IMG/VR virus record: IMGVR_UViG_3300028048_000001
Location: 1-64,000 of that record
DNA: 64,000 nt
Origin: a virus
Taxonomy: Duplodnaviria > Caudoviricetes
Direction: 5' to 3' (one strand)
Under the pieces are notes generated by a model. That model saw only the letters and a list, made by a program, of their open reading frames with translations. It was not told the origin of the DNA and did not search any database. Below are positions 165-46,175 of the stretch, in pieces (the first letter of the stretch is position 1; every line of letters begins with the position of its first letter). Both the position numbers and the translations under genes were made by a program.

Positions 165-362
165 ATAAAAAATATATTATTCTTTACATAGCACATACTA
201 GCGTCATATAAAATAAAAATCCATAGGAGCAATCCTATGGATTTTTATAAAAAAGAAAAATAATTTATATTTTAAAAAAAATATTAGATATATAAGAATT
301 TTTAATAAAAAATAAAAATCTATAAGAGATTTTTCTCCTATAGATTATAGATAAAAATAAAA

Positions 363-446
363 TGCTAGCAGTGGGACTTGAACCCACACGGTAAAATTAC
401 CATCGGATTTTAAGTCCGAAGCGTCTGCCTATTCCGCCATGCTAGC
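363..446 (-). tRNA. tRNA-Leu (UAA)
   Basis: Cloverleaf GCTAGCA...TGCTAGC-A, anticodon arm TCGGA-CT-TAA-AA-TCCGA, long variable arm, GGTTCAAGTCC T arm; no encoded CCA. Confidence 0.95.
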
Positions 447-450
447 ATAA

Positions 451-4365: not shown

Positions 4366-5118
4366 ATGGAGTATAATATTGAAAATTATTTTAATTTTAA
4401 GCAATCAATTCCAGAATTTAAATCTTATATGAAATATAGAAGAATTATTACTGAAGATATAGATGCTGATGAAGGATATGGCAATATATTAAGACCAGTA
4501 TTTATTGTTCTTCTTTATGTAGATTCTACATTTGATAAAATTGCAGAAAAACTTGTTAAAGGACAAAAATATTGGCATGCATCAATATCTTTTGGCCCTT
4601 CATTAAAATATTGCTATTCTTTTAATTATAATTGGGACAAAGAATTTAGTACTAATAAATTTAAAGGTGGGTTATCTTTTGAATCATTTGATACATACAA
4701 ACAAGAAGCTCCTACTGGAACAATGGAAGTGTCTTGTATATTACTTGGCAAAGATAAATACAATAAACTTAAAGAAACGTTAAATTATTATATTAGAAAT
4801 AAAGAAAAAACTAAATATGATTTTTTTAATCTTTTAAGATCTTTATTTGGAAAAGCAACCCCAGATGGAAATAAATTTAATTTAGTTTGTAGTACATTTG
4901 TTGATACTATTTTAAAATCTGTAGATATAAATATATCTAAAGTAAAAGCTATAAATTTAACAAAACCAGATGATTTAAGAGCAATGAGAAGAAATGAAAA
5001 ACAATTTAAATTATATTCTGGTAAAATAATAAATTATCCTATAAATAGAATAGTAGATAAAGTTAATAAACTTACACAAGATGCTAATAATAACTATTTT
5101 AAAGAAATAGAAAAATAA
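4366..5118 (+). CDS. Permuted papain-like (YaeF/YiiX-type NlpC/P60) protein
   Basis: His motif YWHASISF precedes YDF and the Cys motif VCSTFV; paralogous to the C-terminus of 24217-25836. Confidence 0.65.
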   Translation: MEYNIENYFNFKQSIPEFKSYMKYRRIITEDIDADEGYGNILRPVFIVLLYVDSTFDKIAEKLVKGQKYWHASISFGPSLKYCYSFNYNWDKEFSTNKFKGGLSFESFDTYKQEAPTGTMEVSCILLGKDKYNKLKETLNYYIRNKEKTKYDFFNLLRSLFGKATPDGNKFNLVCSTFVDTILKSVDINISKVKAINLTKPDDLRAMRRNEKQFKLYSGKIINYPINRIVDKVNKLTQDANNNYFKEIEK

Positions 5119-45195: not shown

Positions 45196-45663
45196 TTAAA
45201 TTTCTACATCAAATCTAATTTCATTATCATTTTGCCTTGATATATTTACAGCTCTACCAGTATTTTCTGTAGATATAGATATTACCATTGGAAGATTTGC
45301 TTTAAAAAATTCTTTCATCATTGGTAATTCACATATTATGAAAAATATATCTCTATATTTTAATAATTCATTTGGCAGTATATGAGATTTAAAGTTCATT
45401 TGTGATAAAGAAAACATAAATTTAGATTTATCTGTCATTAATGAATTAATGGTTTCTCCAATATGATTCATGCCATAATCATATATTATTCTACCAAGCA
45501 TTGATACATAAAAATCATCTTTTAAATTAAAAAATACTGGAAATAATTTACCATTATCATCTTCTGTAAACATTAATCTAAATTCATCATTTTTATTAGG
45601 ATCAATAGAATTTAAATCATCTAATTGAACTGACATTTTGCTTATATCTTTTATAGAACTCAT
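45196..45663 (-). CDS. Hypothetical protein (start revised to MSSIKD)
   Basis: AAGGAG RBS before ATG 45663. Confidence 0.75.
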   Translation of the reverse strand: MSSIKDISKMSVQLDDLNSIDPNKNDEFRLMFTEDDNGKLFPVFFNLKDDFYVSMLGRIIYDYGMNHIGETINSLMTDKSKFMFSLSQMNFKSHILPNELLKYRDIFFIICELPMMKEFFKANLPMVISISTENTGRAVNISRQNDNEIRFDVEI

Positions 45664-45689
45664 AATATCTCCTTGATAAAAAATAAAAA

Positions 45690-45899
45690 TGGGTGAGGGA
45701 GGGATCTCACCTCCCACGATAGCTTAGCAGGGTCAGACATTCTAATGCCACGTTCAATGAAGAGTCAAATCTGGCCAGATTTCCAAGGTTGAGTTATGGT
45801 CATTATTAATGAAATCCTCTTCAAAGCTTATCCTCAGAAAAACACGTTCTTCTTCTGATGCTATCTCCCTCTTGCGTCTATTACTTCCGCCATCACCCA
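45690..45899 (-). ncRNA. tRNA-like RNA with a ~150-nt domain in place of the anticodon arm
   Basis: Acceptor TGGGTGA/TCACCCA, Leu-like D arm, T-like arm GGGAGG-TGAGATC-CCTCCC. Confidence 0.7.
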
Positions 45900-45929
45900 T
45901 TATAAATAAGTACTTATTATAATAAATTA

Positions 45930-46175
45930 TTAATTAATAAATCCTAAATTATCATTTAATGCTTTTTCAAAATCTTTAAATTTTTCATTTGTCATTGTAA
46001 TAGAAATGCATCTTTTGTCATTAAAATTACCATGTATATGAATATTTTTAAAATCTTTTGGATCTCCATCTTTCATTGAAATAATAATACTATCTGTTTC
46101 ATAACTTTCTATAGCATACAAATTTATTACTATATCATCGTTTAATCTATATAACATTTTACAAGACTTTCTCAT
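45930..46175 (-). CDS. Small early protein, paralogue of 46525-46749
   Basis: YRLN...VINLY.IESY and F..FE.A....LGF shared. Confidence 0.75.
   Translation of the reverse strand: MRKSCKMLYRLNDDIVINLYAIESYETDSIIISMKDGDPKDFKNIHIHGNFNDKRCISITMTNEKFKDFEKALNDNLGFIN

Follow-up and report, generated by a model that had tools for sequence, protein, structure and literature searches.

Bacteriophage T4 encodes two stable RNAs of unknown function, rnaC (species 1, 139 nt) and rnaD (species 2, 119 nt) (PMC3014915), and the YrlA-type Y RNAs of bacteria and phages are tRNA mimics bound by Ro60 (PMC4201824). We compared these RNAs, tmRNA and class II tRNA-Leu(UAA) (RF00005) with a ~210-nt RNA gene on the minus strand, at 45901-45688, of a rumen jumbo phage sequence (the window, meaning the whole 64,000-nt stretch of DNA that was analysed). 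Like T4 rnaC, this RNA has a tRNA-type T arm beside its closing stem and a large folded middle. By contrast, rnaC has a canonical UUCGAAU T loop and lacks a Leu-type D arm. Moreover, rnaC and rnaD sit within the T4 tRNA cluster, whereas the jumbo-phage RNA lies 44 kb from the tRNA cluster and differs from both in having its own promoter-like motif, a pseudoknot and a palindromic hairpin. We saw no sequence similarity of the RNA to rnaC or rnaD. The RNA resembles YrlA-type Y RNAs in being non-coding and non-decoding and in copying the D and T arms of tRNA. In YrlA, however, the ends of the RNA lie at the anticodon side and the acceptor is closed, whereas the topology here is that of a normal tRNA. 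Assignment to the YrlA/Y RNAs was rejected: the RNA ends form an acceptor-like stem, the phage has no Ro60/TROVE gene, and searches with TROVE and Rfam gave no match.

The RNA shares with tmRNA an acceptor and a T arm that its two ends bring together, and a long helix leading into a domain with an H-type pseudoknot. By contrast, tmRNA is not known to have a D stem and is roughly at least 300 nt long, whereas this RNA has a real D stem and is ~210 nt; it also lacks G3-U70 and a tag reading frame, and ARAGORN, Rfam and SmpB searches were negative. The tmRNA-like topology claimed in the earlier note is superficial only. With class II tRNA-Leu(UAA), the RNA shares a 7-bp acceptor, U8-G9, a 3-bp D stem with G.A, the D-arm word UGGYGGAAG...AGACRC, A26 followed by an AGAGG anticodon-stem strand, a GU before the T stem, and a 7-nt T loop with U1 and A5. 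It further resembles the phage's own tRNA-Leu in not encoding CCA and in having a U-rich trailer. It differs from class II tRNA-Leu(UAA) in having no anticodon loop, a 6-bp T stem, a U-A first pair, U73 and a ~135-nt pseudoknotted domain, and it scores under every tRNA detector threshold.

The earlier note had proposed a tRNA-shaped RNA of ~210 nt in which the decoding arm is swapped for a large folded domain. Comparison of homologous sequences supported this description and confirmed that the tRNA-shaped RNA gene is real and conserved. The G+C content of the RNA is 44.8%, versus 26.3% for the window, which places it in the top 0.5% of 210-nt windows. The fold z-score of the single sequence was only -1.4, which is not significant, and support for the structure therefore comes from comparison and not from folding energy. 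Across 12 variants, all 11 helices, which include the 7-bp acceptor-like stem, the tRNA-Leu-type D arm, the 6-bp T-like arm, helix b and six inner hairpins, stay paired by means of compensatory changes. Helices were 90-100% paired with their own partner, as compared with 40-83% when partners were swapped between variants. Within one clade, with the pseudoknot included, 97.9% of cells were paired versus 38-49% with slid partners, and double changes were found at 22 pairs versus 0-2 with slid partners; judged from these alignments, pairing is far above chance. RNAalifold recovered 9 of the 11 helices from clade B alone, and chose another interior fold for clade A, in which three near-identical rows dominate. 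Because MAFFT misaligned the interior in the all-clade alignment, helix coordinates were set by constrained folding and by hand (Table 1). The inner junctions are poorly conserved in sequence.

Table 1. Features of the RNA locus, in order of transcription; positions refer to the window.
Feature	Positions	Strand	Remarks
Promoter-like motif TACT-N6-TA	45901..45912	minus	predicted start is the last A, 45901
P1 5' strand, AA plus 7-nt acceptor-like UGGGUGA	45893..45901	minus	pairs with 45696-45688
U8-G9 linker and tRNA-Leu-type D arm (GCG/CGC stem with G.A; loop GAAGUAAUAGA, without GG)	45874..45892	minus	
Purine linker AAGAGGGA	45866..45873	minus	AGGG at 45870-45867 is pseudoknot strand a
Helix b 5' strand GAUAGC	45860..45865	minus	pairs with GCUAUC
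Hairpin h1, 9 bp, loop GAACGUG	45834..45858	minus	seven versions covary
Helix c UGAAGAG/CUCUUCA, enclosing hairpins d, e and f	45758..45823	minus	all paired in variants
Hairpins d; e; f (inside helix c)	45812-45800; 45799-45783; 45782-45767	minus	
Apical loop GGCC of hairpin f	45773..45776	minus	self-complementary
Hairpin g GGCAU-UAGA-AUGUC	45736..45749	minus	eight versions paired
Pseudoknot strand a' CCCU	45729..45732	minus	pairs with strand a in variants
Helix b 3' strand GCUAUC	45718..45723	minus	followed by GU, 45717-45716
T-like arm, 6-bp stem GGGAGG/CCUCCC, 7-nt loop UGAGAUC	45697..45715	minus	
P1 3' strand UCACCCA plus UU	45688..45696	minus	pairs with P1 5' strand
U-tract UUUUUAUUUUUU	45678..45689	minus	likely terminator tail
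155-aa gene, always adjoining the RNA	45196..45663	minus	homologues P0001-P0007 and P0009 have the RNA directly upstream

The acceptor-like stem named in the earlier note (UGGGUGA, 45899-45893, with UCACCCA, 45696-45690) is present, as are its T-like arm with a 7-nt loop and its helix GAUAGC/GCUAUC. Three of the four inner stems that it listed, UCAGAAGAA/UUUUUCUGA, UGAAGAG/CUCUUCA and GGCAU/AUGUC, are backed by homologues; the other, GAUUUC/GAAAUC, was rejected, since the competing hairpin f (AAAUCU-GGCC-AGAUUU) covaries instead. That note did not list hairpins d, e and f or the self-complementary loop, nor did it recognise the pseudoknot or any homologue. P1 occurs in seven sequence versions, each 100% paired, with a first pair that is always U-A and is flanked by AA/UU. 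The D stem changes between GCG/CGC and GUG/CAC from clade to clade. In the pseudoknot, GGG located 3' of the D arm pairs with CCC close to the 3' end of the insert, the variants of strands a and a' (45732-45729) being AGGG/CCCU, UGGG/CCCA and UAGG/CCUA; the A-rich loop 3' of strand a' is 4-11 nt long (GCUAA in the window copy). Helix b has seven versions, 100% paired with their own partner versus 56% when swapped, and all versions of helix c (eight) and of hairpins d (six), e (seven) and f (seven) are paired. The h1 loop contains ACGU, UGAUCA or GACG, depending on the clade. The T-like stem is GGGAGG or GGGGAG by clade, with a matching partner each time, and its loop has the consensus UGARAUS, which retains U1 and A5.

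The 4-nt loop of hairpin f is self-complementary in 11/11 variants despite changing its sequence (GGCC, AGCU or GUAC), whereas the chance of self-complementarity for a random 4-mer is 0.065. This pattern suggests RNA-RNA dimerisation; alternatively, the palindrome could be a site at the DNA level. Four nucleotides make a small loop for a kissing contact. GGCC occurs 27 times in the window, as compared with 17-19 expected, and is thus not avoided, so the loop word is uninformative on restriction avoidance.

Several features point to a tRNA-Leu origin. The D-arm word of the RNA, which reads UGGCGGAA-GUAAU-AGACGC (45892-45874) as described before, matches that of the phage's own tRNA-Leu(UAA) at 362-447 (UGGCGGAA-UAGGC-AGACGC). 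Among IMG/VR genes of 81-89 nt with the same D-arm word, ARAGORN called tRNA-Leu in 24/25 distinct cases, mostly with the UAA anticodon. A phage tRNA-Leu(UAA) in contig L005 has the linker sequence AAGAGG as its A26 and the 5' strand of its anticodon stem. The cloverleaf order of acceptor stem, D arm and T arm is present, and all three covary. In the phage's own class II tRNA-Leu, the variable arm leads through GU into the T stem, and the junction of b', GU and T stem matches this arrangement. The GGG/CCC pseudoknot occupies the former position of the anticodon stem. Replacement of the anticodon arm and expansion of the variable arm would therefore fit equally. We found no anticodon stem with a 7-nt loop conserved among the orthologues. 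The D loop, GAAG..AUAGA, lacks the GG corresponding to tRNA G18G19, the T loop is UGARAUS and not UUCRANY, and in place of the 12-bp acceptor/T stack of tRNA (7+5) the RNA has 7+6 bp plus AA/UU. Decoding and aminoacylation are very unlikely given the loss of the anticodon loop, the D-loop GG, the T-loop UUC, the 12-bp acceptor/T length and an encoded CCA. The phage genome contains no gene for a CCA-adding enzyme or a class I synthetase core.

At least six diverged lineages of rumen jumbo phages have a homologue of the RNA in the corresponding position, as does the distant contig L180; the RNA is present in L180 and in every contig encoding a homologue of the downstream protein at 55-97% identity. 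L180 departs from the other homologues in its T loop, which is not T-like, its 11-bp closing stem, its weak U-tract and its lack of hairpin g, which varies in length elsewhere. On account of the deviating T loop, closing stem and U-tract, the tRNA-like top half is less conserved than the D arm and pseudoknot. Such a pattern is easier to reconcile with a role as leader or scaffold than with imitation of a site for tRNA-binding factors. Contigs L009 and L010 carry a second copy of the RNA in which every helix is kept, with only a 43-47-aa gene fragment 3' of the copy. In L008 and L011 the second copy is decaying, indicating that it is dispensable there; in L008-type phages the RNA and the gene start were duplicated together. 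Neither blastn of the region nor tblastn of the 155-aa protein matched any of 50,697 phage records, a search for related loci in IMG/VR with the primase found no close relative, and the D-arm pattern was not found in Staphylococcus phage MarsHill or Bacillus phage BpSp. Early D-arm patterns with a forced AAGAGG retrieved mostly unrelated tRNA-like RNAs and ordinary tRNA-Leu. A metagenome scan with a T-arm pattern gave mostly chance matches in G-rich DNA and found the RNA in three loci only, the duplicate records L161 and L169 and one new variant, L168.

The promoter-like motif reported in the earlier note is present, and its position is conserved: all homologues, the distant L180 included, have the layout (T/C)AC(T/A)-N6-TA-A, after which the stem begins with its first U, so that the predicted start lies 2 nt ahead of the acceptor-like stem. 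Late transcription in phage AR9 starts at the last base of its promoter, AACA-N6-TA/G (PMC5312081). By analogy, the motif is a probable AR9-type late promoter, although the AR9 motif differs (AACA versus TACT). The bare pattern TACT-N6-TA is unenriched in the window (12 found versus 11 expected), as is TACT-N6-TAAT. At the other end, a terminator scanner identified an alternative terminator-like hairpin, GGUGAG/CUCACC (45711-45692), that competes for the P1 3' strand; the end of the phage tRNA-Leu has the same design, an A plus a U-tract. We rejected the possibility that the element is an intrinsic terminator only, since the 190 nt 5' of the terminator-like site are structurally conserved across lineages. 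Two contigs, drawn from two metatranscriptome studies, are confined to the RNA, one of 206 nt (45686-45891) and one of 184 nt (45693-45876); a third contig from an RNA library runs from within the RNA into the downstream ORF. These contigs are weak evidence that the RNA is expressed as a discrete species, since both ends and strand are read from assemblies, which cannot prove where a transcript ends, and since RNA libraries can contain DNA. In some runs parts of the stretch were uncovered by reads, which is no evidence of absence.

The 155-aa gene has its ribosome-binding site a few bases past the U-tract and its ATG 14 nt past the U-tract. It encodes an acidic orphan protein (pI 4.5-5.1 in homologues) for which Pfam, PHROGs, Foldseek-PDB and VIA-wide searches were uninformative, the best hit (Z 5.8) being roadblock/PAS-like only. 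A profile search among 1.84 billion proteins returned only 5 clusters. The distant homologue P0010 has no such RNA upstream.

Other long RNAs with a tRNA-Leu frame are present, unannotated, in IMG/VR (L038, L039, L043, L090, L132, L072, L002/L003, L006/L007, L104 and L107). Like the window RNA, which combines a 7-bp acceptor, the D-arm word, a T-like hairpin abutting the 3' acceptor strand and an expanded middle with the lack of a tRNA call, they have a 7-bp acceptor and a tRNA-Leu D arm, often with a 6-bp T stem and an unusual T loop; they are 97-175 nt long and have no detectable anticodon arm and no tRNA call. They differ in that their inserts are unrelated in sequence and size, and they come mostly from small temperate-phage contigs; sharing of the pseudoknot was compared by eye alone. 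We found no description of such a class in Rfam 15 or in the literature searched.

The best explanation of the sequence comparisons, which we hold as a whole with moderate confidence, is that the RNA evolved from a class II tRNA-Leu(UAA) gene into a stable, non-decoding RNA that also attenuates transcription into the downstream gene. The phage's own late-type RNA polymerase would probably start the transcript at 45901, two A's ahead of the acceptor-like stem, and the transcript would end in the U-tract after 45690, such that its two ends could pair into a 9-bp closing helix. From tRNA-Leu, the RNA keeps the 7-bp acceptor, U8-G9 and the D arm, the GU junction, and the T hairpin with U1 and A5 in its loop. 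An H-type pseudoknot takes the place of the anticodon and variable arms, with the anticodon-stem remnant GGG paired to CCC and interleaved with helix b, and anchors a ~135-nt domain of six hairpins, presumably the working part of the RNA. The tRNA-like frame would most likely make the fold compact and resistant to nucleases, and may also present a surface on which a factor binding the body of tRNA could dock. Hairpin f, palindromic through its loop, would most likely pair two copies of the RNA. The RNA would also act in cis, with the closing helix and U-tract setting read-through into the 155-aa gene and later genes, because the next gene starts only ~25 nt past the stem, which leaves no room for a promoter. 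We counted the second copy in L009 and L010, intact beside a mere gene fragment, in favour of action beyond the neighbouring gene.

A considerably less probable reading is that the RNA serves mainly in cis, as a leader that attenuates the operon of the 155-aa gene, a membrane protein and the primase in the manner of a riboswitch or by sensing a protein, and in which a ligand or factor would decide whether the closing helix and U-tract terminate transcription. Consistent with this reading, the RNA strictly adjoins, and is co-oriented with, one gene family in every lineage, L180 among them; the U-tract of L180 is weak; with only ~25 nt between stem and ATG, the gene must be transcribed through the RNA; one RNA-library contig connects the two; and the alternative terminator hairpin competes for the P1 3' strand. 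Against this reading stand the RNA's own conserved promoter-like motif flush with the structure, the RNA-only contigs in two metatranscriptome studies, and the second copy in L009 and L010, structurally intact next to a 43-47-aa gene fragment. Riboswitch cores are usually invariant, whereas the inner junctions here are poorly conserved, and there is no Rfam match. The constancy of the tRNA-Leu frame under selection, together with the many other phage RNAs that combine this frame with quite different inserts, as expected if the frame matters, would suit a decoy or sponge that draws off some host factor, such as a tRNA-targeting defence toxin, by which the tRNA body (acceptor, T or D arm) is attacked or bound. 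This is the surviving form of the decoy idea in the earlier note. We consider it doubtful, as no defence system or target was identified, T loop and closing-stem length are not conserved in L180, and there is no CCA end for 3'-end toxins. The versions of the idea that the earlier note spelled out are unsupported or unlikely: anticodon nucleases are excluded as targets by the lack of a conserved anticodon-like loop, T-box RNAs need such a loop and also an NCCA end while no CCA is encoded, and mimicry directed at synthetases is unlikely because the D loop lacks GG, position 73 is U, the T stem is 6 bp and the T loop is UGARAUS, these being positions that bacterial LeuRS uses.

The conserved pairing of RNA and gene, and the joint duplication of the RNA and gene start in L008-type phages, could alternatively reflect a ribonucleoprotein formed by the RNA with the product of the adjacent 155-aa gene. 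We regard this as improbable, since every homologue of the protein is acidic, no RNA-binding family or fold is detectable in it, and the distant P0010 is encoded without such an RNA upstream. Lowest in probability, and very improbable, is a role in translation, for which the RNA would be either a reduced tmRNA or the precursor of a tRNA interrupted by a large intron. In the window copy, ARAGORN run at very low stringency reads a tRNA-Gln(CUG) whose intron measures 128-129 nt, and the succession of acceptor, pseudoknot, domain and T arm is reminiscent of tmRNA. By contrast, ARAGORN at default settings called five other tRNAs in the window and none at the RNA, its intron mode at default stringency made no call, and the "anticodons" parsed at low stringency (ps60) disagree among homologues (Gln, Phe, none). 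Removal of the ~130-nt insert leaves no conserved anticodon loop, and we rejected an intron-containing tRNA accordingly; ~130 nt is too short for a group I core. The checks named in the earlier note agreed with its own expectation that the RNA is neither a standard tmRNA nor an intron-containing tRNA: ARAGORN was negative in intron mode at default stringency and in tmRNA mode (-m, ps80), and Rfam models searched against 45600-46000, Intron_gpI and tmRNA included, gave nothing relevant at gathering score (29 bits for tRNA RF00005) or at E<=10, in line with its statement that no group I core is visible. Its observation that G3-U70 is missing was likewise correct, the 3-70 pair being G-C, G-C/G-U (one variant), U-A or C-G. 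No ORF is conserved, as the longest ORFs differ in frame and length across homologues, and we found no SmpB gene in the 274-kb phage genome, although the host could supply one. An HDV-like or theta ribozyme was rejected by eye: there is no P4 hairpin and no conserved C in the a'-b' loop, and stem a is 3-5 bp.

A bolder proposal, which we regard as unlikely and put forward tentatively, is that the RNA belongs to a widespread, undescribed class of phage RNAs in which the body of leucine tRNA scaffolds exchangeable effector domains. Here, palindromic hairpins would build dimers or larger assemblies whose action, exerted in trans on some factor of host or phage, would lie outside translation; a counter-defence sponge is one example.

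The RNA family is a well-defined example of its kind, with 11 covarying helices, an H-type pseudoknot built on an anticodon-stem remnant, and a loop that stays self-complementary despite sequence change. The tRNA finders used for phage annotation skip such genes, and a layer of tRNA-derived, non-decoding RNAs may be hidden as a result. The locus also shows how a late-type promoter and terminator are probably laid out in AR9-like rumen jumbo phages, and the RNA may shed light on T4 rnaC and rnaD (PMC3014915). Should dimerisation or binding to a tRNA-handling factor prove true, the RNA would represent the re-use by a virus of the tRNA fold outside decoding.

The RNA gene differs from its surroundings in composition, with 44.8% G+C compared with 26.3% for the window and 20-22% for the flanks; a G+C content this high is reached by only 0.5% of 210-nt windows. 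ARAGORN and Rfam, the latter at gathering scores and at E<=10, gave no relevant match for the RNA. Its single-sequence fold energy was unremarkable (z = -1.4), and the case for the RNA therefore had to rest on comparison. The 155-aa protein encoded directly downstream has relatives in seven 90%-identity clusters (55-97% identity), and every contig encoding one of these relatives has a ~275-nt upstream gap with a homologous RNA. Of three more distant relatives identified by profile search, the cluster P0009 (locus L180) has the RNA upstream, P0011 (L182) has the 3' part of the RNA visible at the contig end, and P0010 has no such RNA upstream. Pattern scans yielded further IMG/VR and JGI copies (L032, L033, L161 and L168). 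The comparison set comprised 12 distinct variants, divided among three clades: A (the window, L023, L024 and the second copy in L009), B (L014, L015, L019, L027 and L168) and C (L008 and L032), plus L180.

Folding constrained on the outer helices, with the coordinates of the small hairpins set by hand, gave one common architecture across the variants (see table). We tabulated the distinct strand pairs of each helix, which occur in 2-8 versions; pairing was 90-100% with the strand's own partner, compared with 40-83% when partners were exchanged between variants. RNAalifold applied to clade B alone, without the hand-set coordinates, recovered P1, D, b, h1, c, e, f, g and T in a 62-pair structure; compensatory changes were present in 20 of the pairs. 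For this structure plus the pseudoknot, on the same clade B alignment, 97.9% of cells were paired, compared with 38-49% after sliding partners by 1-3 columns; both-sided changes occurred in 22 pairs, compared with 0-2 with slid partners; and the observed covariation was reached by 0 of 500 shuffles. The RNA is a real, conserved RNA gene. The acceptor, D arm (UGGCGGAA-GUAAU-AGACGC), T-like arm (GGGAGG-UGAGAUC-CCUCCC), enclosing helix (GAUAGC/GCUAUC) and promoter-like motif listed in the earlier note were all recovered; the inner stem GAUUUC/GAAAUC was the sole listed element without support, and the overlapping hairpin f was supported instead. The distant family member in L180, from another gut metagenome, retains the D arm, linker AGGG, pseudoknot, h1 (UACGUA loop), c, d, e and f (GUAC loop). 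It departs in its closing stem of 11 bp and in its terminal hairpin, which has 4 bp and a loop of 5 nt; hairpin g is missing and the U-tract is weak.

Coordinates of the RNA's elements (P1 to T arm, numbered from 45901), of other features in the window, and of related RNAs in other loci
Feature	Position	Strand
P1 (AA + 7-bp acceptor-like stem + UU)	1-9 / 206-214	
D stem	12-14 / 26-28	
Pseudoknot a / a'	32-35 / 170-173	
Helix b	37-42 / 179-184	
Hairpin h1	44-68	
Helix c	79-85 / 138-144	
Hairpins d, e, f (inside c)	90-102, 103-119, 120-135	
Hairpin g	153-166	
T arm	187-205	
Acceptor UGGGUGA/UCACCCA, window	45899-45893 / 45696-45690	-
TACT-N6-TA, window	45912-45901	-
Alternative hairpin GGUGAG/CUCACC, window	45692-45711	-
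155-aa protein gene, window	45663-45196	-
Own tRNA-Leu(UAA), window	362-447	-
Distant family member	L180:2254-2465	
Clade B RNAs with AACCYA twice	L014:2754-2975, L019:2744-2974, L027:1004-1245	
Copy 2, intact	L009:928-1141; L010	
Copy 2, decaying	L008:707-919; L011	
GUCACUG...CAGUGAC members	L039:~583-681, L038:~973-1089, L043:~2189-2310, L132:~4943-5083	+
GUCACUG...CAGUGAC member	L090	-
Relative in Enterococcus phage EH-TP1	L187:2501-2606; PQ571301.1 26698-26803	
115-155-nt tRNA-Leu-framed RNAs	L002:3977-4091, L003:385-505	-
115-155-nt tRNA-Leu-framed RNA	L006:1228-1382	+
115-155-nt tRNA-Leu-framed RNAs	L072 (151-nt element), L007	
Class II tRNA-like elements	L134 (100-nt element), L004:287-382	-

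The outer frame of the RNA points to a tRNA-Leu origin. The phage's own tRNA-Leu(UAA) has the D arm UGGCGGAA-UAGGC-AGACGC, and 25 distinct 81-89-nt genes in IMG/VR contain the D-arm word UGGYGGAAG-N4-AGACRC; 24 of these genes were called as tRNA-Leu by ARAGORN (21 with anticodon UAA). Loss of the GG doublet is essentially the sole difference between the clade B D arm and these genes. The linker AAGAGG matches A26 plus the 5' anticodon-stem strand of phage tRNA-Leu(UAA), for example in locus L005, which would most simply make pseudoknot stem a a remnant of the anticodon stem. At the 3' junction, helix b, GU and the T stem copy the variable arm, GU and T stem of the phage's own tRNA-Leu, and the trailer of the RNA (A, then UUUUUAUUUUUU) is nearly identical to the trailer behind that gene, with no encoded CCA there either. 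The tRNA-Leu(UAA) gene itself, followed by A and UUUUAUUUUUAU, shares this end design, so that an acceptor stem plus U-tract may act as a terminator for RNA genes of this phage. We found neither a CCA-adding enzyme nor a class I synthetase core in the phage.

The purine linker after the D arm invariably includes (A/U)(G/A)GG and a following A, and pairs with CC(C/U)(U/A) located directly before an A-rich stretch that leads to helix b's 3' strand. This pairing occurs as AGGG/CCCU, UGGG/CCCA or UAGG/CCUA. The strand order a-b-a'-b' indicates an H-type pseudoknot. Stem a is separated from b by 1 nt (3 nt in L180), and a' from b' by 4-11 residues, mostly A; these are typical loop lengths for an H-type fold. 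The six-hairpin domain is inserted whole where the two pseudoknot stems meet. Three clade B RNAs carry the word AACCYA twice, right after helix b and at strand a', and both copies change along with the linker (UAGG with CCUA, UGGG with CCCA). The linker may thus have two alternative partners, a hint drawn from a comparison of only two states.

Several known identities can be rejected. A decoding tRNA is excluded by a D loop without GG, the lack of a conserved 7-nt anticodon loop, the T loop UGARAUS, the 6-bp T stem, the U-A first pair and the U at position 73. The earlier note had stated that the RNA lacks the alanine G3-U70 identity and has no visible group I core, and we likewise found no G3-U70 pair and no group I model match in Rfam. 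The RNA is not a tmRNA, since it lacks G3-U70 and a conserved ORF and the ARAGORN and Rfam models were negative; no SmpB gene was found in the phage, though its host could supply one. Nor is it an intron-containing tRNA, since no group I model matched and ARAGORN in intron mode at default stringency made no call. At ps60, intron mode called the window copy tRNA-Gln(CUG) and its close relatives tRNA-Phe, and found no parse in that frame in the other clades. A Y RNA is excluded because the phage has no Ro60 gene and the topology is opposite to that of YrlA. Coding is also excluded, since homologues do not keep the window copy's 48-codon ORF and show instead ORFs in different frames or early stop codons. 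The nearest published comparison we found is with rnaC and rnaD of phage T4, stable RNAs of unknown role (PMC3014915); rnaC, as folded here, has a canonical T arm adjoining the closing stem but lacks the Leu D arm.

Hairpin f is capped by GGCC in clades A and B, by AGCU in clade C and by GUAC in L180. The stem covaries, and a U-A to C-G double change between L032 and L008 confirms it, with a one-base bulge. GGCC is not known to be a stable tetraloop. By chance, a 4-mer of this composition would be self-complementary with P = 0.065, giving ~3e-4 for three different self-complementary words if independent. In 6 of 11 variants the hairpin is perfectly palindromic over its full length (10-16 nt), and it might alternatively represent a DNA-level site bound by a dimeric protein. 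From the loop sequences we infer selection for pairing of two RNA copies, as a loop-loop contact or an extended duplex, making hairpin f a probable dimerisation hairpin. The h1 loops are also palindromic in part (ACGU, UACGUA or UGAUCA; CG-containing GACG in clade B), in a less clear-cut manner.

In all lineages, including L180, (T/C)AC(T/A)-N6-TA is followed by A and the first U of the stem at the same distance; the bare promoter pattern is not enriched in the window. The AR9 late promoter is AACA-N6-TA/G, with the last base as start site (PMC5312081), and by analogy transcription from the RNA's own late-type promoter-like motif would start at 45901. Two leading A's would then pair with two U's behind the stem, which may be why this AA/UU flanking pair is invariant across variants. 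A U-tract follows the closing helix at the 3' end, and the ribosome-binding site of the 155-aa gene starts a few bases further on, indicating that this gene must be transcribed through the RNA; by its position, the RNA would also be an attenuator. A scanner detected an alternative hairpin directly before the U-tract, built from the T-stem end, the T-loop start and the P1 3' strand. Formation of this hairpin competes with that of P1 and the T stem, and it could bear on how termination is controlled. Among assembled contigs from four rumen metatranscriptome runs (four studies), two cover the RNA only (206 nt, 45686-45891; 184 nt, 45693-45876), one of 254 nt spans 45701-45954, and one of 693 nt extends from 45851 into the downstream ORF. 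Such contigs cannot prove transcript ends or strand, and RNA libraries may contain DNA; they hint weakly at a higher accumulation of the RNA than of its neighbours, with some read-through, and the gene is probably expressed.

The 155-aa protein is an orphan, with no match in Pfam or PHROGs and only 5 clusters among 1.84 billion representatives in a profile search. Its AlphaFold model (pLDDT 76.6, called confident) is alpha/beta, and gave no significant match to the PDB (Foldseek, VIA; best Z 5.8). All homologues are acidic (pI 4.5-5.1; 4.9 for the window protein), which argues against a classical RNA-binding partner. In L008-type jumbo phages, the RNA is present a second time ~2 kb upstream of the first copy, and only the initial 43-47 codons of the 155-aa gene follow this clade-A-like version. 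In L009 and L010, which share the same sequence, all helices of this second copy are retained, and P1 shows G-C to G-U changes. In L008 and L011 it is decaying, having lost the pseudoknot CCC, the GGCC loop and one acceptor pair, mostly by G>A and C>T changes. These states show that the RNA can be kept without an intact downstream gene, and that a second copy is dispensable.

The window covers the first 64 kb of an IMG/VR virus record that is complete at 274,241 bp and has direct terminal repeats (G+C ~22-35%), and the public runs containing it come from 12 studies of bovine gut (rumen) metagenomes. The primase near the RNA is ~30% identical to primases of Staphylococcus jumbo phages, Bacillus phage BpSp, Yersinia phiR1-37 and Listeria LPJP1, and a 532-aa neighbour matches a phage RNA polymerase family; by these protein likenesses, the phage is a member of the AR9/PBS1-like jumbo phages.

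The D-arm scan also detected ~16 distinct 97-175-nt sequences with a 7-bp acceptor, a Leu D arm and a T-like hairpin, often with a 6-bp T stem and with loops such as GGCAGUG, AGCAUUA, UGCGAUU and UGCAAAU; tRNA finders made no call for them. One group, from small phage and prophage contigs, shares one tRNA-Leu-like frame, with GUCACUG...CAGUGAC, the Leu D arm and unusual T loops, around unrelated inserts (total lengths 98, 116, 121, 140 and 149 nt), and resembles a natural tRNA scaffold whose cargo can be exchanged. In Enterococcus phage EH-TP1, a relative of this frame is located in an unannotated 830-nt gap beside the lysogeny module, flanked by a hypothetical gene and an ImmA/IrrE peptidase gene. 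By eye, a GGG...CCC pairing crosses a closing helix in the order a-b-a'-b', as in the window RNA, in further tRNA-Leu-framed RNAs of 115-155 nt (L002, L003, L006, L007 and L072). Two class II tRNA-like elements (L134 and L004) have canonical T arms and oversized anticodon loops of ~11-13 nt; ARAGORN skipped one and called the other with a 6-nt 'intron'.

The RNA is thus a tRNA-Leu-derived, anticodon-less, pseudoknotted RNA of ~210 nt, and is the first element of an operon leading to the primase. Its stable tRNA-shaped frame would carry a working domain, and the RNA may also attenuate read-through. We place it among the tRNA-like non-decoding RNAs of phages.
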